A stretch of DNA of 43,149 nt from an uncultured Gammaproteobacteria bacterium (GTDB lineage Bacteria > Patescibacteriota > Microgenomatia > UBA12405), in contig CAZVMP010000003.1 of NCBI GenBank assembly GCA_964628885.1, forward strand, positions 1 to 43,149, read 5' to 3'. The notes under the pieces are model-generated. The model worked only from the letters and a program-made list of their open reading frames with translations, was not told where the DNA came from and ran no database searches. Shown here piece after piece: positions 1,959 to 39,896 of the stretch. Position 1 is the first letter of the stretch; each line of letters opens with the position of its first letter. The position numbers and the translations under genes were made by a program.

Positions 1959-2976
1959 CTATACCGGATAAGACTTGGATTTCGGTATCAGTTTCAATAC
2001 CGGTATCTATATAAATTTTTTCTAAAGTTTGACCTTTTTTAACCCAAACAAAAGTTTTATTATCTTCATAATTAATGGTGTCAATAGGTAAGGTTAGAGC
2101 ATCTGTCTCCTGTTTAAGAGTAATGGTGACGTCTCCATCCATGCCTAAGCGATAACGCATATCTTGGTTATTAACTGGAAGTTTAAAATCAATCTTGTAA
2201 ACTGTAGAAGTTTGGCCGGAAACAGGAGTAAAAGCAATGTTGGTAATTTCAGAATCAAAACTTTCTTTTGGAAAAGCGTCGATATTAATTTTTGCAGACT
2301 GTCCTATTTTGACTTGGGTAACATCGTCTTCATCAATTTCAGACTTAAAATAAACAGAGGTGGGATCAATAACAACAAACACGGCACTGGAGGGGGTGAT
2401 ATTAACTCCAGGGTTGGTAGGTTCAGCAATAGTGACAACTCCATTTATAGGACTCCAAATGGTGGCATATTTAATTGCTAGATCATTAAGTTCATAATTA
2501 ATAACAGAATTATTGAGTGAATATTGAGATCGGTTAAGAATACGTTTCATTTCGTCAGTTAGAATCAAAGCTTCTTTTTCAGTTTTATATTTGTCTTGAG
2601 TATCATCAAATCTGGAGAGTTCGGCTTGATAGTTATTTAAAGAGATGGCTAATTGTTTTTTAAGTTCTTGTTGATCAAGAGAAGCTAGAGATTGCCATTT
2701 TTTAACTCTATCCCCCACCTTGACTCCAACCCAAACTAATCTACCAGGAGTTTGAAATCTAATTTCGGCCTTGTCTTTAGCATCGATGGAGCCAGATAGA
2801 ACAATATCTTGAGTGATAGTTTTTATCTCTGGGCTAATGAAAGTATCTTTTTTAGGATTAATATTTGTTGAATTTTTGTATTTTTGAGCTTGAATTTGGC
2901 GAATACCAATAAAAAGAATCATGGCGGTAATAATTCCCAAAATAATTTTTTTGCGATATTTCTTGAAAAAATTCAT
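1924..2976 (-). CDS. Membrane fusion / periplasmic adaptor protein (MacA/HlyD family)
   Basis: N-terminal TM anchor, lipoyl-like halves ('FQTPGRLVWVGVKVGDRVKKWQSLA', 'WSPINGVV'), coiled coil, beta-barrel; first gene of the adaptor-ATPase-permease operon. Confidence 0.92.
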   Translation of the reverse strand: MNFFKKYRKKIILGIITAMILFIGIRQIQAQKYKNSTNINPKKDTFISPEIKTITQDIVLSGSIDAKDKAEIRFQTPGRLVWVGVKVGDRVKKWQSLASLDQQELKKQLAISLNNYQAELSRFDDTQDKYKTEKEALILTDEMKRILNRSQYSLNNSVINYELNDLAIKYATIWSPINGVVTIAEPTNPGVNITPSSAVFVVIDPTSVYFKSEIDEDDVTQVKIGQSAKINIDAFPKESFDSEITNIAFTPVSGQTSTVYKIDFKLPVNNQDMRYRLGMDGDVTITLKQETDALTLPIDTINYEDNKTFVWVKKGQTLEKIYIDTGIETDTEIQVLSGIDANDSVAIRKI

Positions 2977-4818: not shown

Positions 4819-4826
4819 AAATTAAG

Positions 4827-4899
4827 TGGACCGTAGGAGAGTCGAACTCCTGATCTCTGCAATGCGAATGCAGCGCTCTACCAACTGAGCTAACGGCCC
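4827..4899 (-). tRNA. tRNA-Ala(CGC)
   Basis: Reverse complement GGGCCGTTAGCTCAGTTGGTAGAGCG-CTGCA-TTCGCAT-TGCAG-...GGAGTTCGACTCTCC-TACGGTCCA; cloverleaf with G3:U70; CCA not encoded. Confidence 0.96.
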
Positions 4900-4915
4900 T
4901 TTAAGTATATATTAA

Positions 4916-5452
4916 TCAGGTTTTTGACAGAAAACTATCGATTTGGTTGGTAATATCCTTATTAAGAGATTCTATTATATCTAATTCGTTTGAGGTGAAT
5001 GGTTGAAGAACATAATCTTCAGTAGAAATATGGTTTTGAGGACTGTTAATACCAATACGGAGGCGATAAAAGGCTTGGGTTTGGAGGTGTTGAATAATAG
5101 ACTTAATTCCATTGTGTCCAGCTGATCCTCGATCAAACTGAGTTTTAAAATCCCCTACCGATAGGTCAAGATCATCATGGATGATATAGATATTTTTGGA
5201 ACTAATTTTATAGAAATTGGCAATATTATAGACAGAAATACCGGAATTATTCATAAAATCAGTAGAGATGGCCAAAATATTTTTCTGACTTCCCTGCCCT
5301 ATTTGGCAAATTTTAGAGTAAAGATTTTTTTTAAAAACTAATGGAGGGAGTTTTTTGTCTTGGAGATATTGATTAATAATTTTTTGACCTAAATTGTGGC
5401 GGGTAGTTTGGTATTTTTTTCCAGGGTTACCAAGTCCGAATATAAGTTTCAT
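4916..5452 (-). CDS. pth: Peptidyl-tRNA hydrolase
   Basis: MKLIFGLGNPG, TRHNLG, FMNNSG, HDDLD, SAGHNGIKS, RLRIGI; start moved from 5467 to 5452 because the family begins at MKLI and a TGcTAAAAT element lies 5 nt upstream. Confidence 0.96.
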   Translation of the reverse strand: MKLIFGLGNPGKKYQTTRHNLGQKIINQYLQDKKLPPLVFKKNLYSKICQIGQGSQKNILAISTDFMNNSGISVYNIANFYKISSKNIYIIHDDLDLSVGDFKTQFDRGSAGHNGIKSIIQHLQTQAFYRLRIGINSPQNHISTEDYVLQPFTSNELDIIESLNKDITNQIDSFLSKT

Positions 5453-5562
5453 AGGATATTTTAGCATTGGCTTACTTGATAGATAAGTATATATTTTGAT
5501 ATATATTTATAGCCTAAAGATAGGAAAGAATAATTTTTATATACTTATTAGCAGTCGTTTTG

Positions 5563-7512
5563 TTAGTTTGCTAATTGATTAAATTCAATTTCATTAATAA
5601 TTTTAGTATTGAATTTTTTAGCATTAATAAATTTAGCAGAATTAGATTTAATTTCATTAGTGATAAGGTAGTTGGTGTGAGAAGTCACAGATGAGGTTAA
5701 TTTACCGCCAAGTGAGGTGATTTTTTCTTCTATGATTTTTCGGGGTAATGAAAGAGTACCGGTAATAGCAAATGATAATCCAGATATTTTTGATTTTGAA
5801 TTTGAGGAGTGAATTTGAGAAATGGTGATATTGGAGAGAATGGATTTAATAAAATCTTGACGGTCCTGAAGTCCTTGATAAATTTTTTGAGCTAAAGTTG
5901 TTTTGATACCAGGAAGAGCTTCTAATTTAGAGACAGTTAATTGGAGAATTTTTTCAGGAGTATTAAAACCGGCTGTAATAATTTGAGTGATTCTTTTGGA
6001 GCTAAAGTTAGGAATAATTGCGGCAGTTAAAACTTGCTTGAGAGTTAAGTATTTTTTTGATTGAATTTGACTAATAATATTATTACCGGACTTTTGTCCT
6101 AACCCAGGGATAGTTTTAAAATTATCAACAGTGAGATGGTAAAAATCTCCAGGAAGTCTAATTAGGTTTAGGTCATAAAGTTTGGTAATGGTTTTGTCAG
6201 AAATTCCTTTAATGTCTAATTTATTACAGAATAGTTTAAGTGATCCTAGTATTTGAGATTTACAATTTTTAAGGTTAGGACAACGGATAAATTTATTATC
6301 AACAATAAGTTGACTGTGACATGAAGGGCAGTTTTTTGGAGGAGAGATGTGTCCGGGATTAATTTTAGTAATAACTTTTTCGATATGGGGGATAACATCG
6401 CCGCGTCGTTGAATTTCAACAATATCATTAAGATTAATATTTTTATCTCTTATTAGATTGTAATTAGCCAATGAAGCAAAGGTAATGATGGCACCAGAGA
6501 TTTCAATTGAGTCAACTTTGGCTACTGGGGTAATAGTGCCCATAGGACCAACTTGCCAATCAACTTTAATGATTCTGGTTTGACTAGAGCGTGAAGGGAA
6601 TTTGTAAGCAACTTGTCCTTTGGGGCGGCCATTTTTAGAACCTAATTGATGTTGGATAGTAAGATTGTTTATCTTAATAACTAGGCCGTCAATCTCAAAG
6701 GGGTAGGTTAATCGAGTTTTGGTAAGGAATTTTTGGTAGATGGTTTCAATTTGATTAAAATTTTGACAAATAAAAGTTTCAACAGGAGTAAAACCATATT
6801 TTTTAAGTAATTTTATTTTATCTGATTCGGTGGCGATTTTAATTGATTTGGAAACGGGGTGAATATCGACAGCATAGAGGCTGCAATATTCAGAAAATTG
6901 GCCATCTAATCTTTGAGAGATACCAGAAGCGGCATTACGAGAATTGGAATAAATTTCGTTTTTATTTTTAACAATTTGATTGAGTTTTTTGAAATCGGAG
7001 TCGAGCATAACAATTTCACAACGAACGGAACCAGAAAACTTTTGAGGTAGTTTGGCAACAAAATTTTTCATGAGAGTAATATTTTGAGTAATAATGTCCC
7101 CTATTCGACCGTCGCCGCGAGTAATAGCATTAACTAGTTGGCCATTTTGGTATTCAATTTCTAAAGAAATACCGTCGCATTTAACTTGAACAACAAACTC
7201 GCTATTTGAGGGAATTTTTTTGAGTTGGAAATAATGGATTAAATCAGAATAAGTGTTGACTTTATTTTGAGATCCCATTGGCATAGTATGGAGTTTTTTG
7301 TCAAAACCGGTATTAAATTTATCAGTACCAATTTTGGAAAAAATTCGATGATATGGGTTTTGGTGGCGGAGAGTGTCTTCAAGAATATCGTAGGTGTGGT
7401 CATCCATGATGGGTTTGCCACCAGTGTAATAAGCTTTTTTAGCTTCAATTAAGAGTTCGCCAAGTTTTTGAGGAGAAATATTTTTAAGCTCGGGAGATTC
7501 AAGAGTCAACAT
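5563..7512 (-). CDS. ligA: NAD-dependent DNA ligase
   Basis: Domain Ia (AYY...DDHTYD), KCDG adenylation motif, TRGDG, EIDGLVIK, AYKF, OB fold, CPSC...C...C zinc finger, HhH, C-terminal BRCT (FAITGTL). Confidence 0.97.
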   Translation of the reverse strand: MLTLESPELKNISPQKLGELLIEAKKAYYTGGKPIMDDHTYDILEDTLRHQNPYHRIFSKIGTDKFNTGFDKKLHTMPMGSQNKVNTYSDLIHYFQLKKIPSNSEFVVQVKCDGISLEIEYQNGQLVNAITRGDGRIGDIITQNITLMKNFVAKLPQKFSGSVRCEIVMLDSDFKKLNQIVKNKNEIYSNSRNAASGISQRLDGQFSEYCSLYAVDIHPVSKSIKIATESDKIKLLKKYGFTPVETFICQNFNQIETIYQKFLTKTRLTYPFEIDGLVIKINNLTIQHQLGSKNGRPKGQVAYKFPSRSSQTRIIKVDWQVGPMGTITPVAKVDSIEISGAIITFASLANYNLIRDKNINLNDIVEIQRRGDVIPHIEKVITKINPGHISPPKNCPSCHSQLIVDNKFIRCPNLKNCKSQILGSLKLFCNKLDIKGISDKTITKLYDLNLIRLPGDFYHLTVDNFKTIPGLGQKSGNNIISQIQSKKYLTLKQVLTAAIIPNFSSKRITQIITAGFNTPEKILQLTVSKLEALPGIKTTLAQKIYQGLQDRQDFIKSILSNITISQIHSSNSKSKISGLSFAITGTLSLPRKIIEEKITSLGGKLTSSVTSHTNYLITNEIKSNSAKFINAKKFNTKIINEIEFNQLAN

Positions 7513-7627
7513 TTATATATTATACAAAATTAGAGGCCTTTAAACCTAACTCACCTTCTTTGTTAAAATATTCTGAGAGTTAGATTAGTTGTGAAGAGAA
7601 AATCTTTTGAAATAAAGTGATTTAAGT

Positions 7628-8755
7628 TTAGACGTTGGTAAGACAATAGTAGGCTCCTTTAGTAGAACCACGTTTTTCAACAGCACCAGAGTCGACCAGC
7701 TTTTTAAGGTCTCGCCAAATAGTATCATCTGAAACCATAGGAAGAAGTTGTTGAGCATCGGGCATACGTAGACCGCCAAATTGTTGCATGTATTCAACTA
7801 ATTTAATTTGACGTTCACTTAAGTGAACTTGTTTGCCACCGAGTTTTTGTTTGAGCTTGATATCGCGGGATAAAGATTGGACTTTGTCTTTGACTCGGGA
7901 AAGTTCTATTGAGAGAGCTTGAGTATAGTATTCAATCCATTTGGTTAGATCACGTTTGAAAGTGTCGGAGGCAAGTAAGTGAGTATTTTGGATGGTATTG
8001 TAATAGTCTTCGGCGTTGCGATCGAAGTATTCTTCCATAGAAAAGAGACGACGAATATCATATCCTTGAGTATAAAGAGGTAACATCGCAAAAGCGCGAG
8101 AAACACGACCATTACCTTCAATAAAGGGATGAATGGCAACTAGAATATATTGACTAATAGCGGACTTAATAGTGGCGTGGATGTCTTGGGAAACTGGGGC
8201 GTTAATCCAATCAATAAAATCAGCCATAAGATAAGGAACTTCTATGGCTGGAGGTGGTCGGTGGGCAATTTCTCCGGTGTGAGTATTCTTAAGAACCACT
8301 TGCTGGTGGCGATATTTACCAACATCTGATTCGGGAATGATTTTAGCGGTAGTAAGTTGGTGGATTCTTTTAATAATAGTCTCACTATAAAAGAAGAATC
8401 GGTTTTTATCATTAGTATCAACATTTTTTTCTTCTGGCAGAGGTAGATTGGCGTCGTAAAGTGACCATAACTCCTCGAGATAGGAAATAACATTTCTATA
8501 GTTAATAACTTCTTGGATATCTCGGTCAGTAGCTGTAACTTGGTGTCCTTCAACTAATTTAGCTACTTCCTGAAAGGTTAAATCATTACCTTCAATTCGA
8601 GTACCATAATGAACTGTTCTGACAATAGCTTCTTGTTGGAATTGTTTTTCATAGGCTGGAATCATGGGGGCTTCATCAATGATGGCCTTAGCAGCTTCAA
8701 TTTGGCCAATATTTTTCAGAATTTGATTATTGATTGAGAAGACAGGAGAAAACAT
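7628..8755 (-). CDS. Fic family protein with C-terminal DeoR-like winged HTH
   Basis: Canonical Fic motif HPFIEGNGRVSR; N-terminal TRIEGN inhibitory-helix-like motif; C-terminal 'VSDDTIWRDLKKLVDSGAVEKRG' wHTH. Confidence 0.92.
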   Translation of the reverse strand: MFSPVFSINNQILKNIGQIEAAKAIIDEAPMIPAYEKQFQQEAIVRTVHYGTRIEGNDLTFQEVAKLVEGHQVTATDRDIQEVINYRNVISYLEELWSLYDANLPLPEEKNVDTNDKNRFFFYSETIIKRIHQLTTAKIIPESDVGKYRHQQVVLKNTHTGEIAHRPPPAIEVPYLMADFIDWINAPVSQDIHATIKSAISQYILVAIHPFIEGNGRVSRAFAMLPLYTQGYDIRRLFSMEEYFDRNAEDYYNTIQNTHLLASDTFKRDLTKWIEYYTQALSIELSRVKDKVQSLSRDIKLKQKLGGKQVHLSERQIKLVEYMQQFGGLRMPDAQQLLPMVSDDTIWRDLKKLVDSGAVEKRGSTKGAYYCLTNV

Positions 8756-8847
8756 GTTAAGCTGATTATATCATTTTTGGAGTAATAGTTAAGGGGAAAA
8801 TGCGGGAATCAGTTTAGATTATAGATATTAAATTATGGGTTTTAGCT

Positions 8848-9495
8848 TTAAGATAAAAATAAGTAATCAAGTGCAGATTTAGGGTCAACATTACTTTCAA
8901 TCATTTTAATAGAAGTCATTATTTTTTGGATCAAGTGGGAGTTGGTGGTGGTTGGGTGTTGTTTTAAAGTACGTTGATAAATTTTTAATTGTTCCTTGAG
9001 ATGCGGAAGAACGCTACTTCGATCTTTAGAAAGAGTATCGCTGAGGAAAAGGTCTTTTTTAATTTGATGGCTAATGGTTAGAGGAGTTAATTGAGAATTA
9101 ATTTTATGGATATTTTTTAGCTTAACGGATTGACAACGAGAAATAATTGTGGGTAAAAGTTTTGAAGGTTTAGCGGTGGTAATAATTATATAGTTATTAG
9201 GACCAGGGTCTTCAATAGTTTTAAGAAGGGCGTTTTGGGATTCAATATTAAGATTTTCGGCCTGATAGATAATAACAATCTTGTTTTGATGGTTGAAGGG
9301 TTTTTGAGAGAGAAAATTTTTAATTTGTCGAGTAAGATCAATTGTCCAGCCGCTGTCTTGGTTAATGATAAAAATATCGGGGTTGTTTGGGTTAATATTA
9401 TTTTTTAGCTGTTGGCAAATATGATTGATTTGGATATTTATTTGGTCAGTGTCTGAAGAGATAAATAAAGTTGAGGGGAAAAGGTTAGTTTTCAT
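8848..9495 (-). CDS. holB: DNA polymerase III delta-prime-like subunit (short)
   Basis: 'NPDIFII', 'KIVIIYQAENLNIESQNALLKTIEDP', 'LLPTIISRCQ' (SRC motif); no Walker A or zinc-finger cysteines visible. Confidence 0.8.
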   Translation of the reverse strand: MKTNLFPSTLFISSDTDQINIQINHICQQLKNNINPNNPDIFIINQDSGWTIDLTRQIKNFLSQKPFNHQNKIVIIYQAENLNIESQNALLKTIEDPGPNNYIIITTAKPSKLLPTIISRCQSVKLKNIHKINSQLTPLTISHQIKKDLFLSDTLSKDRSSVLPHLKEQLKIYQRTLKQHPTTTNSHLIQKIMTSIKMIESNVDPKSALDYLFLS

Positions 9496-9536
9496 TGATT
9501 TGGTTACGAAAAAACTGTAGTATAAATATAAGTATT

Positions 9537-11276
9537 ATGAATGATTCTGCCCAAAAAATATACAAGAGCCTTGGAGAGATTCTTAAAGATGAAGGCTTGA
9601 TAAGTGAACAAGGAGATAAGGATATTGGATTAAGAAGGGTAAAAACTGGTGAATCAGAAGAAGATATTATTAGAGCGTTAAGGTTAGTTCCCGAGGAGTC
9701 TTTGGTTAAGGCTAAGGCAAAGTTTTTGAAGGTACCGTTTATAGATTTAGATAATACAGCCTTTTCTCCAGAAGCGTTGAGTTTAGTACCGGAAAGTGTA
9801 GCTCAAAAATATAAAATAGTAGCCTATCGGTTTGACGCTAAAGCTAAGACATTATTTGTAACCATGGTAAACCCGTTGGATTTAGAGACGTTGGAATTTT
9901 TGGAAAAGAAAACTAATTTGAAAATAAATGCCGCCATGTCAATGGAAAAGCAAATAGATTCATTTATTAGGGAAAAGTATATTAGAGAGAAAAGTATTAC
10001 TTCAGAAGTAAATAAGGCGTTGGATGAAAGAAAGGCAGAAGAAACTGTAGTCAAGAAAACTCAAGATAATGTTACAGTTGAAGCACCGGTAGCTAAGATA
10101 GTTTCGACAATTTTAGAGTATGCAATAAAATCCAGAGCGTCTGATGTTCACATTGAACCACAGGAAGACAATGTAAGAGTGAGGTATAGGATAGATGGTA
10201 TCTTGCAGGAAAAATATTTGTTGCCAAGAAATGTTCACGATGCAGTGGTTTCAAGAATAAAAATTTTGTCAGATTTAAAAATTGATGAAAAAAGAGTTCC
10301 TCAGGATGGTCGGTTCTTTTTTTCGGCAGACGGGAATGATGTTGATTTGCGGATATCAACTTTACCAACCACTTATGGAGAAAAAGTAGTTATGCGTCTT
10401 TTAAAAAAATCGCAGAAAGTTCCTAGTTTACCGGATTTAGGATTGAGAGGGTTGGCGTTGAAAAATTTAATGACTTCGATTCAGCGACCACATGGAATAA
10501 TTATAGTTTGCGGACCAACTGGTTCAGGAAAGACAACCACCTTATATTCAATTTTAGATATTGTGGCGACATCAAGGGTAAATGTAGTTACGATTGAGGA
10601 TCCGGTGGAATATCAAATGAAAGGAGTTAATCAGGTCCAAGTGAATGTACAAGCAGGGTTATCGTTTGCTTCAGCCTTAAGGTCGTTTTTACGTCAGGAC
10701 CCAAACATTATAATGGTAGGAGAAGTCCGGGATGCGGAAACGGCTGATTTAGCTATTAATGCGGCTTTGACAGGTCATTTGGTGTTTTCAACACTTCACA
10801 CCAATGATGCTTCTGGAGTTCCACCACGGTTACTGGATATGGGAGCAGAACCATTTTTATTAGTATCTTCATTAAATTGTGTCGTTGGTCAACGGGTATT
10901 AAGGAGGGTTTGTAAGGAATGTGTTTCTGAATCAGACATGACTTCGGATCAGGAACATGAGATAAAGACAACTTTAGGACCAATTTATAATTTAATAGAA
11001 GATAAATACAGAAAGGAAGGAAAGAAAATAACTTTACCAAAAATTGTAGGCTGTGAAAAGTGTAATAATACGGGATATGTGGGGAGAATCGCTATTTATG
11101 AAGTAATGCCAATAAGTGAAAAATTATCAAAATTAATTATTGAGAAAGCAGCTGCTTCTGAGATTCAAAAACAAGCAATGGATGAAGGGATGTTAACGAT
11201 GAAACAGGATGGTTACGTTAAGGTATTAGAGGGAATAACTACTATGGATGAAGTTGTCAGAGTAGCCCAATATTAG
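9537..11276 (+). CDS. pilB: Type IV pilus extension ATPase (PilB/GspE)
   Basis: MshEN/GspE N-domain, ASDVHIEP, RYRIDG, PQDGRF, Walker A GPTGSGKTT, TIEDPVE, LRQDPNIIMVGEVRD, TGHLVFSTLH, CxxC...CxxC; start set at ATG 9537 (track begins 9495). Confidence 0.96.
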   Translation: MNDSAQKIYKSLGEILKDEGLISEQGDKDIGLRRVKTGESEEDIIRALRLVPEESLVKAKAKFLKVPFIDLDNTAFSPEALSLVPESVAQKYKIVAYRFDAKAKTLFVTMVNPLDLETLEFLEKKTNLKINAAMSMEKQIDSFIREKYIREKSITSEVNKALDERKAEETVVKKTQDNVTVEAPVAKIVSTILEYAIKSRASDVHIEPQEDNVRVRYRIDGILQEKYLLPRNVHDAVVSRIKILSDLKIDEKRVPQDGRFFFSADGNDVDLRISTLPTTYGEKVVMRLLKKSQKVPSLPDLGLRGLALKNLMTSIQRPHGIIIVCGPTGSGKTTTLYSILDIVATSRVNVVTIEDPVEYQMKGVNQVQVNVQAGLSFASALRSFLRQDPNIIMVGEVRDAETADLAINAALTGHLVFSTLHTNDASGVPPRLLDMGAEPFLLVSSLNCVVGQRVLRRVCKECVSESDMTSDQEHEIKTTLGPIYNLIEDKYRKEGKKITLPKIVGCEKCNNTGYVGRIAIYEVMPISEKLSKLIIEKAAASEIQKQAMDEGMLTMKQDGYVKVLEGITTMDEVVRVAQY

Positions 11277-13628: not shown

Positions 13629-14321
13629 ATGAAACAAAAGATATTTTTAGGAAATAGAAAGAAAAATAAAGGTTTCACCTTAGTGGAACTATTGATAGTT
13701 ATTGCCTTGATTGCAATTTTATCAGTAGCAGTTTTGGCAACTATTAACCCAATTGAACAATCAAATAAGGCTAAAGACTCAACTATGCAAAACGATGCTG
13801 CTGAAGTCTTGAACGCTTATGAACGTTATTATGCAGCTCAAGCTTCTTATCCTTGGATTGATGTAGTATCCCCCTCAACCTTAACAGTTGATAATGAAAT
13901 AAGTTTAAATAGTACCATGGCAGGGTTCGGTTTATGTACTGTTGCCGATGCTGCAAGTCCTACGGATCAATGTTCCCCAAGAGATAGCCAGGGGTTACTG
14001 CTAAGTACCACTGAGCTAAAAGACTCTTTTTTAGAGAAAAATTATACTAAAAGTCCAACCAATCCAGCCAACGAACCTTTGTTTTCTGAAAGGCTCTATT
14101 TAGTTAAGGATCCGGTAGGCCAAGGAAATTCAATTCATGTTTGTTTTATTCCTAAGGCAAAGGCTAACAGGACACAAAATTCCAGATTAAAGGAGCTAGC
14201 TGTCGATGAGAGTGGAATTCCAACAACATTTATAGATGCTACTGGATTTGTTAGCGGTTATCCTGCTGCAAGTTGGGATTTTACAAGTGCAGGAACATCA
14301 CTATTTAAGTGCGTACCATAA
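13629..14321 (+). CDS. Type IV pilin, probable major pilin
   Basis: Class III signal KNKG|FTLVELLIVIALIAILSVAVLATINP; directly after pilC and followed by a strong terminator; 4 Cys in the globular domain. Confidence 0.88.
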   Translation: MKQKIFLGNRKKNKGFTLVELLIVIALIAILSVAVLATINPIEQSNKAKDSTMQNDAAEVLNAYERYYAAQASYPWIDVVSPSTLTVDNEISLNSTMAGFGLCTVADAASPTDQCSPRDSQGLLLSTTELKDSFLEKNYTKSPTNPANEPLFSERLYLVKDPVGQGNSIHVCFIPKAKANRTQNSRLKELAVDESGIPTTFIDATGFVSGYPAASWDFTSAGTSLFKCVP

Positions 14322-16643: not shown

Positions 16644-17099
16644 ATGATAAAAAGAAGTAAAAAAAATGGTTTTACCTTGGTAGAATTATTAATTGTGATT
16701 TCAATTATTGGAATTGTCACCATAATTGCCTCAAGTAGTTTTGTTAGTTCTCAAAAAAAATCCAGAGATGCTTCAAGGAAGGCTAGTTTAAAATCTTTAT
16801 CAGATGCCTTAAATATGTATTACGCTGATATGGGTTCATTCCCTACTTCAATTACATTTGGAGGCCAATTGATATTAGGAACGGTAGTCTATATGAAAGA
16901 AATTCCAACAGAAACAGCTAAAGGAGTTAAACAATTTTATTACCAACCATCTCCAACTCGGAAGTCGTTTAGATTGTATACCAATTTGGAAAATGGTGAC
17001 GATAAAGATTGTTTACCTTCTTGTTCTGGTTATAGTGTCCCAGGAGGCTGTTGTTATGCGATTACTAGTTCAAATGCTAATATGAGCGATTTACCATGA
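16644..17099 (+). CDS. Type IV pilin-like protein (GspG-like)
   Basis: MIKRSKKNG|FTLVELLIV; 'SRDASRKASL...MYYADMGSFP', 'FRLYTNLENGDD'; start 16644 (track 16629). Confidence 0.88.
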   Translation: MIKRSKKNGFTLVELLIVISIIGIVTIIASSSFVSSQKKSRDASRKASLKSLSDALNMYYADMGSFPTSITFGGQLILGTVVYMKEIPTETAKGVKQFYYQPSPTRKSFRLYTNLENGDDKDCLPSCSGYSVPGGCCYAITSSNANMSDLP

Positions 17100-23814: not shown

Positions 23815-24948
23815 TTAGTTTTGTTTCTTAAAAAGAGATGTTAATACTTTGTTGTAAGCAATGGCATAAGTAATTTGGGATAAGTTTTTGAATAAAATTT
23901 TTTTATTAAAAAGGTATTCATTTTTTACACTTTGTTGATAAATTGAAAAACGGTTTAATATATTTGAATATAGTACCTCCGGTTTTTGATTTGGGTTTTG
24001 GAATAATTTAATTTCAAAAAATGTTTGAGAAATAGTGCTTAACATATATTTGATGGTAGGGATAAAGATGTCTGGAAGATATTTTTTAATTAGCTTAAGC
24101 TGATTTTTGATAACTTTTACTTCAATAGTGTAAAGGTTGGGATTAATAGATGAATTTTGCCGAAATATTTTTTTCATCACTTTGACATGGCTTATTTCGT
24201 GAAGAAAATCGATAATTTGATGGTTTAGACTAATATTTTGATTAATGTTAATTTGGAAATTATCGGTTTCTTTTAGATACTGGGCACTTGATAGATTAGA
24301 TAATTTAATCTTTATTTGGGGTTGGTTTTTGTTCAAGAATTGGTATTTTTTAGAAAAGTCTTTTATAAAATAATGAATGTTTTGGTAAGGTAACGGTTTA
24401 GTCTGACAGATAAAACAAGGATTGGTTTGATTTGAATCAAGTTTTTCAATATTTGGTATATATTTTTTACTCTGTTTAATTAAAGTATTAATATTTTTAA
24501 GAAAATTTTGAAACTCCTTTTGAGGTATTTGTGAATAGTCTAACCTTAAATCTAGATAAGATTTATAATGACGGTTTTTAGCAAAAATATTTCTTTCTTT
24601 AATTATTTTTATAAAATCTTTATTAGCTTGGTCTAAAATTGATTTTTTAGTTGTTGGTGATAGTTGTTGATAAGATTTGTTTTGGAAAAATTTAATAGCT
24701 TCTTGTAGGTCATCGGGTGGATTTTTGGGATTAATTTTGGTTAAGCTTTTGGTGGCAATATCTTTGGAGATTTCATCATTAAGCCATAAAGAAATATAGG
24801 CTTTTTGAGTAATATTTCTTGGTTTAGGAAGTTTTGAAAAACTTTGCTTAGCTTGTTGATAACAAGTATTAATCATGTTTTTAATTTGACTATCAGTGAT
24901 AGGGATGGCCTTTTTTTGGTATTGAGAGTAGATGGTGTGGTGATTCAT
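23815..24948 (-). CDS. Putative zinc metallopeptidase (HEXXH; M3-like, short)
   Basis: FLHEISH plus a downstream Glu (TIEVKV); 'RNIFAKNRHYKSYLDLRL' recalls the M3/oligoendopeptidase F segment. Confidence 0.55.
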   Translation of the reverse strand: MNHHTIYSQYQKKAIPITDSQIKNMINTCYQQAKQSFSKLPKPRNITQKAYISLWLNDEISKDIATKSLTKINPKNPPDDLQEAIKFFQNKSYQQLSPTTKKSILDQANKDFIKIIKERNIFAKNRHYKSYLDLRLDYSQIPQKEFQNFLKNINTLIKQSKKYIPNIEKLDSNQTNPCFICQTKPLPYQNIHYFIKDFSKKYQFLNKNQPQIKIKLSNLSSAQYLKETDNFQININQNISLNHQIIDFLHEISHVKVMKKIFRQNSSINPNLYTIEVKVIKNQLKLIKKYLPDIFIPTIKYMLSTISQTFFEIKLFQNPNQKPEVLYSNILNRFSIYQQSVKNEYLFNKKILFKNLSQITYAIAYNKVLTSLFKKQN

Positions 24949-34002: not shown

Positions 34003-35754
34003 CTATTTTATCAAATTTAAGGCTTTATTTGTGATTTGATCCTTAATCTGAGTTAGGAAGTCAGCTAGTGTCATAATACCTAAGTCTTGACCATCGCGCT
34101 GACGGACAGAAATAGTTTTATTTTCTGTCTCACGGCCACCGATAATAATCATATAAGGAATTTTTTCTCCGGCAGCCTGACGAATTTTATTTTGCATAGT
34201 TTCAGCACGATCATCAATTTCAACCCGAATATCTTCGTTTTGAAGAAGATCCTTAATTTGCTGGGCATATTCTAATTGCTGATCAGTAATGGGAATTATT
34301 TTAATTTGAGTTGGAGCAATCCAAGTTGGAAATGAGCCACTAAAATGTTCAATAAGAATTCCCATGAAACGTTCAAGTGAACCATAAATTACACGATGAA
34401 TAACTACTGGAGTTTTTTCAGTACCATTTTTGTCTGTATATTTTAAATTAAACTTACGAGGAAGTTGAAAATCTAATTGGATAGTACCTGTTTGCCATTC
34501 ACGACCAATACAGTCATCCATTAAAATATCTAATTTTGGTCCGTAAAAAGCACCTTCTCCGGGGCCAATAAAATAATCAAAGTTGTTATTTTTTAATATC
34601 TTTTCTAGTTCTTTTTCAGCCTTATTCCAAGTTTTAATATCTCCCATAAAATCATCTGGTCTGGTACCAAGTCTAATCTTAAATTCTATTCCAAAAACTG
34701 AATAAAATAATTTAGCAATTTCTAGAATTTTTTTATATTCATCTCCGATCTGATCTTCAGTTACAAAAATATGAGCATCATCTTGAGAAAATTTTTGAAC
34801 TCGAAGTAAACCATTAAGCTGACCTGATTTTTCATGTCGGTGAAGAACATCGCAGTCCGAAAGACGTAAGGGTAATTCGCGATAGCTATGTTTAGATTGT
34901 TTAAAAATAATCATGGCATTGGGACAGTTCATGGGTTTAAGACAATAGACACCATCCTCTTTCATATCAGAAATAAACATATTTTCTCTATAATGATCCC
35001 AATGACCAGAGGTTTCATAAAGTTGTTTTTTATTTAAAAGAGGGGTAATGGTTTCGTGGTAGCCTCGTTTTGAGTGTTCTGAACGCCAAAATTTTAGTAA
35101 TTCATTGATAATGATAGTTCCTTTTGGAAGCCAATATGGCATTCCGGGAGCTGTTTCATCTATAAAGAATAATCCTAGTTGTGGGCCTAATTTGCGATGA
35201 TCGCGTTTTTTAGCTTCTTCCAGATTATCGAGGTATTGTTGAAGTTCATCTTTAGTATTAAAAGCGGTGCCGTAGATACGAGTAAGCATTTTATTTTTTT
35301 CATCACCATGCCAGTAGGCGCCAGCAACGGACAAGAGTTTAAACGCTTTGACCTGACTAGTATAGCGAACATGGGGTCCAGCGCAAAGATCAATAAAATC
35401 GTCGCCGGTTTGGTAAGCAGTAATTACTTCTCCCCTATCTTCGATAGAGTCAAGCCATTCCATTTTATAAGGATTGTCTTTAAAAATTTCTTTGGCTTCA
35501 TTAAGACTGATTTCTAATCTAGTTATGGGTAGATTTTGCTTAATAATTTTTTTCATTTCGGACTCAATCTTGGGGAAATCATCTTCACTGAGTTTAAAAC
35601 CGTTAAGTGGTTCAAAATCAAAATAAAAGCCGTTATCAGTAGACGGACCCATAGCCATGAGAAATTTATGAGGATAAAGTCGCTCCATGGCTTGAGTGAG
35701 AATGTGCTCAGTGGAGTGACGAAGTTGATGTAAATCTGTTTTGTTTTCTGACAT
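34003..35754 (-). CDS. thrS: Threonine-tRNA ligase (no N-terminal TGS domain)
   Basis: RHSTEH, DLCAGPH, RDHRKLG, LKPMNCP, GAFYGPKLD, QLDF, HRVIYGSLERF, C-terminal anticodon-binding domain. Confidence 0.97.
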   Translation of the reverse strand: MSENKTDLHQLRHSTEHILTQAMERLYPHKFLMAMGPSTDNGFYFDFEPLNGFKLSEDDFPKIESEMKKIIKQNLPITRLEISLNEAKEIFKDNPYKMEWLDSIEDRGEVITAYQTGDDFIDLCAGPHVRYTSQVKAFKLLSVAGAYWHGDEKNKMLTRIYGTAFNTKDELQQYLDNLEEAKKRDHRKLGPQLGLFFIDETAPGMPYWLPKGTIIINELLKFWRSEHSKRGYHETITPLLNKKQLYETSGHWDHYRENMFISDMKEDGVYCLKPMNCPNAMIIFKQSKHSYRELPLRLSDCDVLHRHEKSGQLNGLLRVQKFSQDDAHIFVTEDQIGDEYKKILEIAKLFYSVFGIEFKIRLGTRPDDFMGDIKTWNKAEKELEKILKNNNFDYFIGPGEGAFYGPKLDILMDDCIGREWQTGTIQLDFQLPRKFNLKYTDKNGTEKTPVVIHRVIYGSLERFMGILIEHFSGSFPTWIAPTQIKIIPITDQQLEYAQQIKDLLQNEDIRVEIDDRAETMQNKIRQAAGEKIPYMIIIGGRETENKTISVRQRDGQDLGIMTLADFLTQIKDQITNKALNLIK

Positions 35755-35916: not shown

Positions 35917-37350
35917 ATGTTAAAAATAAAAAATAATAAATGGTGGTGGCTGGTAATAGTAGTAATTGGATTGGGGTTAGTGATTAGATTAAAGAATTTT
36001 AGAGTATTACCAGTAGACGGTCATCCAATGAGACAGACAGACACTGAATGTGTAGCTTATTTTCTGTATACCGGTAAGGCTAGTTTCTTTAAGCCGAAAA
36101 GTTGTTTAATGAGGCCGGTGAGTAATATTGATGGTTATTTTTTATTAGAAATGCCATTTTATGAAAAATTGATTGCAGTGAGTTATAAAATTTTTGTTTC
36201 AGAGATATGGGCAGCTCGAATAGTTAATCTTCTTTTGTATTTAGTTGGAGCAGTAGCTGCGTGGAAATTTTTAAGTGAATGGTTGGGTAAAAAATCAGGA
36301 ATTTTGGGATTAATAATTTACAGTTTGATGCCGGGGAGTATTTTTTTTGTGGGCCATGCGATTCATCCAGATGCTATGGCGGTGAGTTTAATTTGGGTAG
36401 CATTGTACTTAGTTTATAAATATAGTCAGAATAGAAATTATAGATGGTTAATTAGTAGTGGAATAATGATGGGGATTAGTGTCGCTAGTCGACCATTCGG
36501 ATTAATTTGTTTACCACTGTTGTTTTATTTTTTGTGGCAGAAAAAAAGCAAATTTAGAGACTATGTGACATTGATGGTTTTATCGGTAGGGTTTTATGGT
36601 TGGTGGCAGTGGTGGGTAAATTATTTAAATTTAGATATGAGTTGGGAAAATTGGGTATTGGCGGGTCGGGAGAAGTTGTTTGATTTAGGATTGTTAAAAA
36701 ACTTAATTTGGAAAAATGTGGTTGGTGAGGTAATGGGTAAGGTGGCCAGTGTGCTAGCAGGGATAGGTTTGATGGTGGGGATTATTAAAAAAGATAAAAA
36801 AATAAGACCACTAATTTTGTGGATTTTTGGAGTAATGGTTTATTGGTTGATAGTACCAAATGGTAATTTAACTCATCAATATTATGCTGATGTATATATC
36901 CCGTTGGTAGTAATTTTGGCAGCAATGGGATGGAAATTTGTTTGGGATAAGAGTTGGCTGATAGCAATCTTAATTTTACCAGTGTTGATATGGAATGGAG
37001 TTAGGGTAAGTAATTATTTTTTTCAACCAGAGATTGAGGCAAGAGAAAATATTAAAATTGCTAATGAAATTAAAAAAGAAATCGGTGAGGATAAAAAGAT
37101 AATTTATTTAGTGAGAAATAATTCAATCCCATTGTCTTTAGCACATCGTCAAGGGTGGATGTTGGGTGAGTGGCCTACTGATGTGGCGGGACATATTTGG
37201 GCATTTATGGAAATGAGAAATTATGAATTTGATTATATTGTTGAACCTAAAAATAAAAAAGATTTGAAGAGCGAAGATTGGGAAATTATTAAACAAAATT
37301 ATCCACTAGAAAAGGAAGGAGAAACAATAAATATCTTTAAAAGAAAGTAG
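35917..37350 (+). CDS. GT-C fold membrane glycosyltransferase (GT39/ArnT-like)
   Basis: About 11-12 TM helices, first loop 'HPMRQTDT' with acidic residue, 'EMPFY', 'HPDAM', small C-terminal extracytoplasmic domain. Confidence 0.8.
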   Translation: MLKIKNNKWWWLVIVVIGLGLVIRLKNFRVLPVDGHPMRQTDTECVAYFLYTGKASFFKPKSCLMRPVSNIDGYFLLEMPFYEKLIAVSYKIFVSEIWAARIVNLLLYLVGAVAAWKFLSEWLGKKSGILGLIIYSLMPGSIFFVGHAIHPDAMAVSLIWVALYLVYKYSQNRNYRWLISSGIMMGISVASRPFGLICLPLLFYFLWQKKSKFRDYVTLMVLSVGFYGWWQWWVNYLNLDMSWENWVLAGREKLFDLGLLKNLIWKNVVGEVMGKVASVLAGIGLMVGIIKKDKKIRPLILWIFGVMVYWLIVPNGNLTHQYYADVYIPLVVILAAMGWKFVWDKSWLIAILILPVLIWNGVRVSNYFFQPEIEARENIKIANEIKKEIGEDKKIIYLVRNNSIPLSLAHRQGWMLGEWPTDVAGHIWAFMEMRNYEFDYIVEPKNKKDLKSEDWEIIKQNYPLEKEGETINIFKRK

Positions 37351-37685
37351 TGTGAACTAAAAGTTACTATTCTTGAACTTTTAGAGTATCTCGTTAAAGA
37401 GAAAGTAAAAATAGACGAATGTTAGATTATTTTTCTGTTTTGTTGGATAAAAATAAAGATAGAATAGATAGGGAGATTGAGGATATTGTGCCGTAAATAC
37501 ATTACATTTGTCTTATAACTTGACAGATACCAAACCAAAAAGATACTTTTTTAAATCTGCTGATTTATTAGAAGACGATGATTTATCTGATGAGGTTGAA
37601 AGTGCAGGTGGCGAAGCCATGTTTTCATTATGGACTTTATTTTGTCACTTTCTTGTAGTTGTTGTTCATTCATTTTTATTTTTAA

Positions 37686-38219
37686 TTAAATTGTGCCTTC
37701 AATTAGTAAAATAATCTCATTTAACTTCGAGTTGGTTTTTCTTTTAGTGTTTATTGTTTTTTTGGGAAATAATCTAAAAAAGTCTTTATTTTCTTCTGTT
37801 CTGATGTTTTTTAAAAATTCTTTTTTATATTTTAATTTGCACTTACCAGTTTTATTAGGAATATCATCTTGGTTATCACATAATATGCTCAATAAAAGAA
37901 ATTCGATGCAAGGTGTTATTTCTATTAGTTTTATATTATTTATATTTGCTTGTTTCCTAGCTTTTTCCATTTCTTCTGTTTTTTTATCGTTATCGAGCAC
38001 AGTAACTCTGTTATCATATAAACCATGAGAATTTATAGTTTCCAAGACTAGACCGTCTGCAGTGCCGCCCATTCCATTTCTTATCGTTAGTTTTACTCTG
38101 TCTCTATGGGTATATAAGGATTCAAGATATTTAAGAAAGTTTGAATCTCTTAACCCTTCCGCTATTACCAGAATCGTTTTTTTTGGTGTCTTTCGATTTT
38201 GTTTAACAAGTTCTGGCAT
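37686..38219 (-). CDS. RloB/AbiLii-like TOPRIM-type protein
   Basis: 'LVIAEG..D..FL', 'VLDND' (DxD), 'PCIEFLLL' match the RloB pattern; 12 nt downstream of the ATPase. Confidence 0.75.
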   Translation of the reverse strand: MPELVKQNRKTPKKTILVIAEGLRDSNFLKYLESLYTHRDRVKLTIRNGMGGTADGLVLETINSHGLYDNRVTVLDNDKKTEEMEKARKQANINNIKLIEITPCIEFLLLSILCDNQDDIPNKTGKCKLKYKKEFLKNIRTEENKDFFRLFPKKTINTKRKTNSKLNEIILLIEGTI

Positions 38220-38231
38220 AAATTTTTAACC

Positions 38232-39443
38232 TTAACTTATATTTGGGAAAGCACCATAGGCTCCAGTAATATATTTGAGATAATAATTATCATCTGGTCT
38301 GATACCAGACATGTCATCTAATCTCCATGATTCGCTTACTCCATCTTTATTCTTTTCTACTAAGATTATTTGGTATTTATTTAATTTACTTAAAATAAGA
38401 TGACTGTGGGTGCTGAATATTAGTTGGGCGTTATGTGGGTTGGTTTCTGGCTGCATAAAGAGGTTAAATAACGAGATAACTATTTCTGGGTGTAAATTTA
38501 CATCTATTTCATCCAATACAGCGATACCACCCCTACTTAATACTATTAAAATTGATTTAAGCATTGTAAAAAGCTGTCGTGTCCCCGAAGATTCATATCT
38601 TATATCTAGATAATGTTTCACTCCTTTAAATATATGAGTACCTTTTGCTTCTATATGTATCTGACCATTGTCTTCTTTTGTTTTTTTGATATCAAATGAA
38701 TCTAAACCGAGATCAAAACTAGAGAGTAATTTTTCCGCCTCTTTTTTAAGAATTTTATTCTCGCTAAAAAAATCTAATGTTTCAATGAAATTTATATCAG
38801 AATTAGCTAATAAATAATCACCTATCCAACCTGATTCAATAACATTTGTTTCTATGTTATTCCAAAAGTTTGCTATTTTTTGACTAGGTATATGATTTAG
38901 TCGTATAGCACTTCCGATTATACTAGTATTTTTTCTTAGTGATTCCTCAAACCCTTTTGGAAATTTGAAGTTTTTACCATTAAATCGGTATTTCTTTTCA
39001 GATTCATTCCAAATGCGTGAAAATGCTGTTTTATAGGTATTTTTTTCTTTAGTAATACTTCTAAATGAGAGTTTTTCGTTCAGAATTCTTTCTGAATTTA
39101 ATATAAATTTATATATATAAACTATACCGTCTATCTCAAATTTAGCCGATAACTCCGTTGGATCTTTTTTGTTTTCGAATTTAAAAGCCTGAACTGCTAT
39201 TGGATCGTTTGGATTAAGACTGAAAGAACCAATCATAAGCCATTTCATAAATGGTAATGCTTTTAATAGATTAGTTTTACCAGAAGCATTGGATCCTATA
39301 ACTGTTTCTGCTTTTGACAATCTGGTTTTTGATTTGTCTTTAAAAAATCCGTTGCTTTTTGGTGCGTGCTTGTTAACTACAAAATTAACTGTTGTCAAAT
39401 CTTTAAAGGAATAAAAATTTTTACAAGAAAAAGAATGAATCAT
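38232..39443 (-). CDS. AAA_21-type ABC-like ATPase (RloA/AbiLi-like)
   Basis: 'FSCKNFYSFKD', Walker A GSNASGKTN, 'YESSGT', Walker B VLDEIDVNLHP, 'QLIFSTH', C-terminal 'YITGAYGAFP'. Confidence 0.9.
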   Translation of the reverse strand: MIHSFSCKNFYSFKDLTTVNFVVNKHAPKSNGFFKDKSKTRLSKAETVIGSNASGKTNLLKALPFMKWLMIGSFSLNPNDPIAVQAFKFENKKDPTELSAKFEIDGIVYIYKFILNSERILNEKLSFRSITKEKNTYKTAFSRIWNESEKKYRFNGKNFKFPKGFEESLRKNTSIIGSAIRLNHIPSQKIANFWNNIETNVIESGWIGDYLLANSDINFIETLDFFSENKILKKEAEKLLSSFDLGLDSFDIKKTKEDNGQIHIEAKGTHIFKGVKHYLDIRYESSGTRQLFTMLKSILIVLSRGGIAVLDEIDVNLHPEIVISLFNLFMQPETNPHNAQLIFSTHSHLILSKLNKYQIILVEKNKDGVSESWRLDDMSGIRPDDNYYLKYITGAYGAFPNIS

Positions 39444-39545
39444 ATAGTTGGTATATTATCAATGGTTGGTCTATATGTCAATATTTAACATTATTTTGTT
39501 AAATATTGCTTTATAAGTATATATTTTGTTTAGTTTTGGAAAATT

Positions 39546-39718
39546 GTGCGCGTTAGGTATCATTGTGCTAAAAATAGTTTTGTTGAACTCAGAGCAAATG
39601 GATGGAGTTTTGATCGGATCTAAAAAAACTTAATGTTTCTAAACTAACATTGATAAATTATGGCTCAATCCTGACTTTATTAAGATTGTACTGGTCAATT
39701 CAAAAAACTAAACAGTAA
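39546..39718 (+). pseudogene. Frameshifted HTH DNA-binding protein remnant
   Basis: Frame 1 'FVELRANGWSFDRI*' (TAA 39621-23) continues in another frame as 'KKLNVSKLTLIN'; restoring 1 nt gives a coherent HTH. Confidence 0.6.
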
Positions 39719-39822
39719 ATTATCGTTGCAAATGGCTATTGGTAGTGAAGTCAATTTTAAAGGTTAAAACAAAAAATCAAACTTTTAAAAAAGTGTTCAT
39801 TTTTGCAACGGTGCCCAATAAG

Positions 39823-39896
39823 TGAGTCTAAGAGGACTCGAACCTCTGACCTCTTCGATGTCAACGAAGCGCTCTAACCAACTGAGCTATAGACTC
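39823..39896 (-). tRNA. tRNA-Val(GAC)
   Basis: Reverse complement GAGTCTATAGCTCAGTTGGTTAGAGCG-CTTCG-TTGACAT-CGAAG-AGGTC-AGAGGTTCGAGTCCTCT-TAGACTCA. Confidence 0.96.

Follow-up and report, generated by a model that had tools for sequence, protein, structure and literature searches.

What is a compact pair of co-directional genes, coding for an ATPase and a small putative nuclease, doing beside a tRNA-Val gene in a genome of the candidate phyla radiation (CPR, Patescibacteria), a group with tiny genomes, in which few defence systems have been recognised and hardly any phages studied by experiment? The pair lies in a stretch of 43,149 nucleotides (contig CAZVMP010000003.1 of assembly GCA_964628885.1, positions 1 to 43,149 of the forward strand; hereafter, the window), which was deposited as an uncultured Gammaproteobacteria bacterium and is placed by GTDB in the Patescibacteriota (Microgenomatia, UBA12405), and an earlier, sequence-only reading had proposed it to be a horizontally acquired anti-phage module of an AbiL/RloAB/PARIS-like kind. 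The answer reached here is that the pair probably is an anti-phage cassette of the AbiL/RloAB type, working by means of an ATPase-held nuclease and residing inside a 2,471-bp insertion. By classification, this makes it a further example of AbiL, a system that existing defence-annotation tools already name, and CPR defensomes have already been surveyed with automated tools of this kind; what is added beyond the first reading is an insertion proven by synteny, the spread of the cassette across a clade, the uneven conservation of its two genes, a palindrome coupled to a promoter, and the recognition of the slot as a hotspot.

The two genes and their family

The two open reading frames (ORFs) are separated by 12 nt and follow one another on the minus strand, as the sequence-only reading had it:

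38232..39443, minus strand: AbiLi-like ATP-binding cassette (ABC) ATPase of the Rad50/SMC type, 403 amino acids (aa); assigned by Pfam, PADLOC, invariant motifs and an AlphaFold2 (AF2) model
37686..38219, minus strand: AbiLii/RloB-like small putative nuclease, 177 aa; assigned by Pfam, PADLOC, residue conservation, an AF2 model and BFVD

Judging from these ORFs and their family matches, the pair is a self-contained two-gene cassette of ~1.85 kb belonging to the AbiL/RloAB family, and both of its proteins keep intact catalytic motifs. The ATPase matches Pfam AAA_21 (expectation value, E, of 2.6e-27) and AAA_15 (E 4.7e-11), and the PADLOC run that had been suggested as a check returned the AbiLi model PDLC02335 over residues 1-402 (E 5.9e-71, 237 bits). 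The generic AAA_21-type models of PADLOC (“AriA”, PtuA, GajA) score far below AbiLi; those for AriA reach E 1.3e-29 and 6.5e-13, the stronger of them aligning with the residues, and over the profile range, that Pfam AAA_21 also matches. Walker A (G50-N-A-S-G-K56-T, ending at T57), the signature (Y283-E-S-S-G-T-x-Q290), Walker B (D311-E312), the D-loop (D314) and the H-loop (H346) are all invariant across 40 homologues, among which the mean column identity is 70%. The AF2 model of the ATPase, of moderate quality (predicted local distance difference test, pLDDT, 74), matches Rad50/SMC heads and the PtuA of Septu and retrons with E of ~1e-9; among solved defence ATPases, PtuA is also the one nearest in sequence (E 1.5e-6), and a weak match to recF (E 0.005) is confined to the Walker A region.

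For the small protein, the AbiLii models PDLC02338 (E 7.6e-8) and PDLC02337 (E 9.6e-4) and Pfam RloB (PF13707; E 4.4e-7, 30.7 bits) agree, and a profile search of the full database gathered 696 cluster representatives of its family, nearly all of them 165-185 aa long. Counts over 133 aligned members show AbiLii matches in 114, RloB matches in 107 (E<=0.01), GajA matches in 35 and an AriB match in a single one, which, taken together, makes membership of the RloB/AbiLii family a solid assignment by sequence. The glutamate and DxD residues read earlier from the translation are there (E21 and D76-N-D78), and they are well kept: E21 and D76 in all 133, an acidic residue at positions 25 (D/E) and 106 (E/D) likewise in all 133, D78 in 127 and K128 in 132. 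Two cysteines are also strongly conserved among the same relatives, C104 (125/133), inside a P-C-[IL]-E motif, and C127 (103/133), which adjoins the near-invariant K128; their role could be structural, redox or metal-binding.

The Toprim definition of Aravind, Leipe and Koonin (1998) places a Glu after strand 1 and a DxD after strand 3 of a four-strand beta/alpha core, and this is the arrangement seen in the AF2 model of the small protein (pLDDT 94.5): a core of b1-a-b2-a-b3-a-b4-a followed by four helices, E21 following the strand at 14-20, and D76xD78 ending the strand at 70-76 (b3). In BFVD, the library of viral structures, the sole significant match of the model is an RloB-like protein (E 4.6e-7, template modelling score, TM, 0.63). 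Toprim chemistry is therefore well supported for the modelled protein by its motifs and topology, while being unproven by structure search. No zinc-finger or helix-hairpin-helix (HhH) feature of the RecR type was found in it by the Pfam scan.

The two genes are unevenly conserved, the ATPase far more so than its nuclease partner (~60% against ~40% identity): when the same pairs of loci are compared, the ATPases are 60-64% identical and the nucleases 38-42%. Relatives of the ATPase number 691 at E<1e-10, and the best 120 of these are mostly at least ~60% identical to it, are 383-428 aa long (mostly 402-405) and carry the labels of many Patescibacteria classes and of a few Nanoarchaeota or Clostridia.

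Insertion at the tRNA-Val gene

The cassette is flanked by genes for tRNA-Val, DUF5660 and trigger factor on one side and for a PMT_2 glycosyltransferase and threonyl-tRNA synthetase (ThrRS, thrS) on the other, and the tRNA-Val gene, downstream of whose 3' end the pair had been placed by the first reading, was located there by ARAGORN (a scan of the window with Rfam returned five tRNAs and nothing else). The islet and its boundaries consist, besides the two genes, of the following:

39822..39896, minus strand: tRNA-Val (anticodon GAC), the 3' end of which is the proximal islet boundary (ARAGORN; Rfam tRNA, 73.8 bits)
39516..39821, no strand assigned: non-coding spacer of 306 bp from the tRNA to the cassette promoter (no ORF or family; fraction of G+C, GC, 0.291)
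37351..37685, no strand assigned: stretch of 335 bp from the nuclease gene to the glycosyltransferase stop codon, with short broken frames (six-frame translation)
35917..37350, plus strand: PMT_2 (GT-C fold) glycosyltransferase, the distal islet boundary (Pfam PMT_2, E 1.8e-15)

The contig comes from a Shapirobacteria-like bacterium within the Microgenomates. Relatives of thrS were scanned at 80 loci, with the absence of the pair checked within ~10 kb of thrS. The order DUF5660, tRNA-Val(GAC), thrS is kept in 18 related loci of Shapirobacteria/Microgenomates, most of which also share the upstream genes for elongation factor P (EF-P), a LysM-like protein and trigger factor, and the pair is present in none of the 18. 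The closest relative for the genes of both sides, L009 (70-81% identity on one side, 79-95% on the other), has a closed junction, its tRNA-Val ending at 2281 and the complement of the glycosyltransferase stop codon occupying 2282..2284 with no gap in between, so that 37351..39821 (2,471 bp) is inserted DNA relative to the L009 arrangement. The islet sequence, junctions included, is identical in two independent metagenome assemblies, which is why the insertion is not an assembly artefact. Across the relatives, the interval following tRNA-Val ranges from 0-150 bp (ten loci) up to 5 kb; this comparison of the interval between tRNA-Val and the GT-C glycosyltransferase, which the first reading had recommended, speaks against a lineage-wide vertical conservation of the pair at the locus, and the horizontal acquisition suspected there is borne out by the 18 syntenic relatives without the pair, the closed junction in L009 and the presence of homologous cassettes at unrelated loci.

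The composition of the islet is atypical, as had also been remarked: its GC of 0.289 is the lowest when set against 715 segments of that size in the window (mean 0.339, standard deviation 0.015), and its GC skew of 0.035 falls within the lowest 2.7% of them. Gene by gene, the signal is milder, the third-position GC skew being 0.16-0.17 in the pair against a minus-strand mean of 0.42 (standard deviation 0.17), and a modest deviation of this sort is common to thrS, infC and two pilin-like genes as well.

Similarity to the nearest cassettes at the DNA level (70-74%) is limited to ~37670..39527, that is, to the promoter and the two genes, with the upstream end at ~39515-39527. When the spacer at 39516..39821 was compared with other cassette loci, one 22-nt match (E 0.01) and nothing else notable was found, and 37351..37685 matched none of the fetched loci save L001 and L002, which are copies of the same genome (tblastx against all loci with the cassette was also null). 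The latter stretch had been described as containing a broken helix-turn-helix (HTH) gene; six frames and a hand-spliced version of it, searched against Pfam (E<=10), gave chance-level matches only, the best being VapB antitoxin (E 0.074) and coronavirus E protein (E 0.081), and with no family on either strand better than E 0.07, that description was dropped. A 40-aa ORF within it (37551..37673, a gene in the public record) was considered as a conserved third gene of the cassette and rejected, being unrelated to the 40-aa ORF of L089/L090.

The cargo of the tRNA-Val slot varies among the relatives (L004, L025, L038, L021 and others). In L025, it is occupied by a fused ATPase-TOPRIM gene (604 aa, OLD/GajA/AriAB type; 7986-9800, minus strand, GC 26.6%), in L004, by a hydrolase-like gene together with radC and an HTH gene of the XRE type (7666-9834), and in L038, by a 5-kb run of four long ORFs (4712-9738), with the PMT_2 gene present there in only a few relatives. 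Since L025 and L004 hold differing cargo there, the tRNA-Val/thrS slot is a small hotspot for variable and partly defence-type cargo.

The cassette in other genomes

The small gene stands directly 3' of the ATPase gene and on the same strand in every locus of the close clade with enough sequence, except L206-L209, and no conserved third gene was found downstream of the pair across the loci. The neighbours differ by lineage, placing the cassette at unrelated loci in many Patescibacteria. In L089, a complete CPR genome of 870 kb, it adjoins uvrA and a diversity-generating retroelement (DGR; reverse transcriptase and bAvd); in L084, of a different lineage, it again adjoins uvrA, and the proximity in both may be a coincidence or reflect a shared variable region. 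Elsewhere, the cassette lies beside tRNA synthetase and transporter genes, beside a large serine recombinase and an HTH gene, beside AbiEii, or beside a NucC/PD-DExK-like nuclease, each at a locus of its own.

More distant pairs (26-35% identity) are found on plasmids of many phyla, beside genes annotated as “RloB domain-containing protein”, and on viral contigs of IMG/VR, where no close relatives were found, the identity of all IMG/VR pairs being <=35%. Six of these viral contigs (L098-L103) carry a distinct subgroup of such pairs, an ATPase with 35% identity and an RloB-like protein in ORFs lying end to end, and four of the six keep a 95-aa ORF just downstream of the pair. A separate peculiarity is presented by L206-L209 (the lineage of protein P0098), in which an ATPase of full length (61% identity) has a truncated partner of 95 aa behind it, among housekeeping genes; this lineage is widespread and bears the label “Clostridia bacterium”, whereas its neighbouring genes are CPR-like, and it holds either a decaying copy or an ATPase acting alone.

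Control region

Upstream of the ATPase gene, two elements were delineated:

39479..39508, minus strand: operator-like palindrome CAATATTTAACA-aaataa-TGTTAAATATTG, core ACA-N6-TGT (inverted repeat I20)
39453..39481, minus strand: sigma-70-type promoter-like site (scan, 10/12 matches, and conservation)

The promoter-like site consists of a -35 hexamer TTGACA (39476..39481), a 17-nt spacer ending in TGA, which makes it an extended -10, and a -10 hexamer TAATAT (39453..39458), in keeping with the extended -10 of its own that the operon had been credited with. The region holds two 10/12 promoter matches, and only the one at 39481..39453 possesses the extended -10 TG. In this AT-rich region, sites resembling a promoter are, taken as a class, no more frequent than expected (12 observed against 15.1 in shuffles), and the case for a cassette promoter, therefore, rests on conservation: with the upstream regions of close-clade ATPase genes anchored on the promoter hexamers alone, the architecture (-35 of TTGACA or TTGCAA, 17-nt spacer ending in TGn, -10 of TAnnnT) is kept in 36 of the 39 distinct regions.

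The arms of the palindrome (39497..39508 and 39479..39490) are perfect over 12 nt, and the right one overlaps the -35 by 3 nt. An ACR-N6-YGT palindrome occurs 5-9 nt upstream of the -35; in 44 of 48 loci of the close clade, the palindrome and promoter together lie <=130 nt from the start of the ATPase gene, and in two further ones ~300 nt upstream of it, against a background of 10 occurrences of the combined pattern in 598 kb of related genomes and two elsewhere in the window. These counts come from homologous sequences and, as such, measure conservation and not independent recurrence. The flanks are often complementary too (e.g., CCACAA...TTGTGG, CTACGA...TCGTAG, TAACAA...TGTTA), but imperfectly so outside the core, for which reason covariation of the RNA type is not claimed; that the surrounding intergenic DNA has diverged argues for the palindrome being a putative protein-binding operator under selection. 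A generic count of inverted repeats upstream of the homologues had been tried and was discarded as uninformative in AT-rich DNA (24/39 against 13.6 in shuffles), the promoter-anchored comparison being used in its place. At L149, L150 and L153, the palindrome also faces a divergent -35-like hexamer (TTGACA/TTGAAA) on the opposite strand.

Between the end of the -10 and the ATG there are 9 nt in the window and 7-10 nt in nine other loci, the others having leaders of 22-40 nt. As this distance is so short and no Shine-Dalgarno sequence was found upstream of the ATPase ATG (39443..39458, minus strand), the predicted ATPase mRNA is probably leaderless or nearly so.

Relation to known systems

AbiL of Lactococcus lactis (AbiLi and AbiLii, plasmid pND861) has the same gene order, an ATPase of the ABC/Rad50 type and, after it in the same direction, a small RloB/Toprim-like protein, and both it and the present cassette are carried on mobile or variable DNA. 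The lactococcal system is an abortive-infection system acting after phage transcription (PMC13064643), and AbiL has been grouped with PARIS among the systems of an ABC ATPase with a TOPRIM/OLD protein, with the question of a shared mode of action left open (PMC13064643); it is listed in such a group in PMC10440598 as well. In contrast to the prototype, the present cassette comes from a very distant CPR host, its clade is a tight one (ATPases of 402-405 aa, ~60% identical among themselves and 26-30% to the plasmid-borne relatives), and it has a conserved palindrome-plus-promoter of its own.

In PARIS, AriA sequesters AriB, binds a phage trigger in an ATP-dependent manner and releases AriB, which cleaves tRNA (PMC11464382; PMC12409363). 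An AAA_15/21 ATPase and a stand-alone Toprim-type nuclease in separate genes are features that PARIS and the cassette share, the metal-binding residues of AriB (E26, D30, D88, E90, E122; PMC11464382) are spaced comparably to E21, D25, D76, D78 and E106 here, and a logic of sequestering and release is a plausible common mechanism. The present nuclease, however, is of the RloB type rather than DUF4435 (no DUF4435 or AriB match was found for it with Pfam or PADLOC, and AriB was matched by just the one relative mentioned above), and both proteins are smaller, 403 and 177 aa as opposed to ~55 and 35 kDa. Of the AbiL/RloAB/PARIS-like label given by the sequence-only reading, then, the AbiL/RloAB part holds, through PADLOC and RloB, and PARIS in the strict sense does not.

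RloA/RloB of the Campylobacter jejuni type I restriction-modification loci, cited in the same ATPase plus TOPRIM/OLD group (PMC13064643; PMC10440598), have the same Pfam RloB beside an AAA ATPase; no hsd restriction-modification locus surrounds the pair described here. OLD (P2 Old, class 1) and GajA of Gabija (class 2) likewise combine an ABC ATPase with Toprim chemistry, GajA being the profile matched by 35 of the small-protein relatives, and a fused gene of the OLD/GajA type sits in the very same tRNA-Val slot in L025. In both, though, ATPase and Toprim are fused into a single polypeptide, to which Gabija adds the GajB helicase, whereas here the ORFs are separate and no helicase gene was found in the islet or among its neighbours, and the OLD C-terminal region is matched only weakly in structure (E 0.016). 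With Septu and retron PtuA, nearest by sequence among the solved defence ATPases and among the top structural matches, the likeness ends at the partner, which is the HNH nuclease PtuB and not an RloB/Toprim protein. Type II toxin-antitoxin (TA) systems (NetFlax, AAA antitoxin and TOPRIM toxin) share the architecture only, a bicistron with a promoter palindrome.

Proposed mechanism and alternative explanations

To the observed family assignment, intact motifs, two-gene organisation, insertion and spread over unrelated loci, a mechanism can be added by analogy with PARIS, with AAA-antitoxin/TOPRIM-toxin pairs and with AbiL. Transcription of the operon would start at the extended -10 promoter that belongs to it and give an mRNA with no leader or almost none, and a factor bound at the conserved palindrome, which may be the cassette's own protein complex, would probably repress it by way of dosage control. 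The ABC ATPase would form ATP-dependent head dimers or higher oligomers and keep the small nuclease inactive until it sensed a signal of phage infection, upon which the nuclease would be released or activated in an ATP-dependent manner and would cut nucleic acid at its two-metal Toprim site (E21, D25, D76, D78, E106, K128). The likeliest target would be tRNA or another RNA, with translation stopping and the infection being aborted as a result. The reading of the pair as a defence system is supported by the defence-type company that the cassette keeps elsewhere (serine recombinase, AbiEii, NucC/PD-DExK-like nuclease, DGR).

Several observations weigh against this reading or parts of it. The small protein of the window falls just under the Pfam gathering cut-off for RloB (31.5 bits), and a Foldseek search of its model against the PDB gave no match at E 1e-3: the OLD C-terminal region (6nk8_A) ranks tenth there, with E 0.016 and TM 0.39, among Rossmann-like folds. 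An hhalign comparison with the OLD-like Toprim of L025 (E 0.029) aligned the first motif alone, and the sequence profile of the 133 relatives found no relative in the PDB either (best E 0.06, mitochondrial uL23). The islet contains no integrase, as judged by its ORFs and Pfam. An attachment (att) repeat was looked for at the far boundary without success: local alignment with the tRNA 3' end scored 10 at best, against a shuffle mean of 13.4, and seeded repeats were null. A resemblance noticed by eye, of CTTTTAGTTCACAC to CTCTTAGACTCAC at 37351-37366, was rejected as not being above chance. With neither an integrase nor a repeat of the tRNA 3' end found, entry by integration at the tRNA 3' end, an integration hotspot in the first reading, has none of the usual marks in its favour; the occupied and empty sites among the relatives do agree with it. 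The absence of the pair in the 18 relatives, moreover, concerns ~10 kb around thrS and not whole genomes; a DNA-binding domain went undetected in both proteins, meaning that the palindrome may bind a host factor; an ATPase that is ~60% identical across CPR classes is not what would be expected of a sensor tracking fast-evolving phage proteins; and the mechanism of AbiL itself, beyond its action after transcription, is open in the literature (PMC13064643).

A ligand that is itself conserved, whether nucleic acid or nucleotide, would suit the conservation of the ATPase better than a phage protein that varies, and it is here that the serious alternative to tRNA cleavage arises, namely that the pair is a defence system acting as a direct DNA nuclease in the manner of Gabija or OLD, its complex nicking or degrading phage or host DNA upon a change in nucleotide levels or in DNA ends. 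The closeness of the ATPase fold to the DNA-handling heads of Rad50/SMC and the prevalence of GajA over AriB matches among the small-protein relatives (35/133 against 1/133) point in the same direction, yet the division into two genes with a small stand-alone nuclease is the layout of PARIS, AbiL and toxin-antitoxin systems, Gabija consists of a fused GajA and a GajB helicase for which no gene lies nearby, and the lactococcal AbiL acts after phage transcription (PMC13064643), all of which leaves DNA cutting a possibility to be kept in mind, albeit an unlikely one compared with an RloAB-type nuclease directed at RNA. The same Rad50/SMC-like head and very strong conservation of the ATPase, together with uvrA adjoining the pair in L084 and L089 and the weak recF match over Walker A, could be taken to indicate a CPR-specific housekeeping pair for DNA repair or recombination, like RecF (ABC ATPase) with RecR (Toprim) or like SbcCD. 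Such a pair would hardly be missing from the syntenic locus in 18 relatives, stand at a different locus in each lineage examined, be of foreign composition here, score strongly with the AbiLi defence model and have relatives on plasmids and viral contigs, and the small protein has neither the zinc finger nor the HhH of RecR, making this explanation a very improbable one.

How the cassette has spread bears on two further explanations. Its occurrence at many unrelated loci, at one of them beside a recombinase, would be expected of a mainly selfish toxin-antitoxin or addiction cassette as well, with the nuclease as the toxin and the ATPase as the antitoxin, disseminated by post-segregational killing and bringing no real anti-phage benefit. 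Pairs of an AAA ATPase and a TOPRIM_OLD protein do behave as antitoxin and toxin in neutralisation assays (PMC10440598), a compact bicistron with a promoter palindrome is typical of autoregulated type II TA operons, and there is one decayed copy in which the partner is truncated to 95 aa; addiction and defence, on the other hand, are not exclusive, PARIS being both (PMC13064643), the cassette accompanies other defence genes (AbiEii and the NucC-like nuclease), and the prototype AbiL is abortive-infection by experiment (PMC13064643). Pure addiction thus seems improbable. Truncated partners in another lineage, combined with the absence of mobility genes from the islet and with the broken frames and ~640 bp of unassignable sequence that surround the pair, could also be what is left of a former mobile element, decaying without expression or function. 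It would be quite surprising for such a remnant to have two untruncated ORFs with none of the catalytic and family-invariant residues lost, an intact promoter and palindrome, and an identical sequence in independent metagenome assemblies, and little credence is given to it here.

Within the favoured reading of an AbiL/RloAB-type defence cassette, a more specific and distinctly tentative version, rather doubtful as it stands, would see the Patescibacteria-wide clade as a minimal autoregulated relative of PARIS, in which the complex binds its own palindrome at the -35 and thereby sets its dosage, the ATPase senses an invariant signal in place of a variable phage protein, and the fast-evolving nuclease sets the target. 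The sensing of an invariant signal is proposed because the ATPase is so conserved; this could be, e.g., a nucleic-acid structure, the nucleotide pool or a host factor, and the target could be, e.g., particular tRNAs. If true, no smaller ATPase/Toprim immune module would be known, and the cassette would be a common defence of ultra-small symbionts, in which few systems have been recognised.

The locus is of moderate interest, given the unsolved mechanism of AbiL and a CPR context that has been little explored. A 1.85-kb cassette recurring across CPR classes would make a convenient and easily synthesised model for the mechanism of AbiL-type ABC-ATPase/Toprim systems, which is an open question (PMC13064643), and could show how streamlined symbionts gain immunity; its conserved palindrome offers a concrete handle on regulation, and gene flow in these organisms can be studied at the tRNA-Val/thrS slot, a natural hotspot of small size.

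Other observations in the window

The neighbouring thrS gene (34003..35754, minus strand) is phylogenetically discordant. The ThrRS of the window is 62% identical to that of L009, the flanking genes of which are 70-95% identical. It comes closer, at 80-82% identity, to the ThrRS of L004, L008 and L012, the other genes of these loci reaching 53-76%; its third-position GC skew is 0.23, the mean being 0.42. This suggests, as far as sequence identities go, that the thrS allele may have been replaced by recombination. Two type IV pilin-like genes with an N-terminal methylation motif (13629..14321 and 16644..17099, both on the plus strand) have third-position skews of 0.05 and 0.03 against ~0.5 in their neighbours, which hints at a recent exchange or inversion. 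Lastly, a 377-aa ORF (23815..24948, minus strand) with no Pfam match has the lowest GC of all the genes in the window (26.1%).

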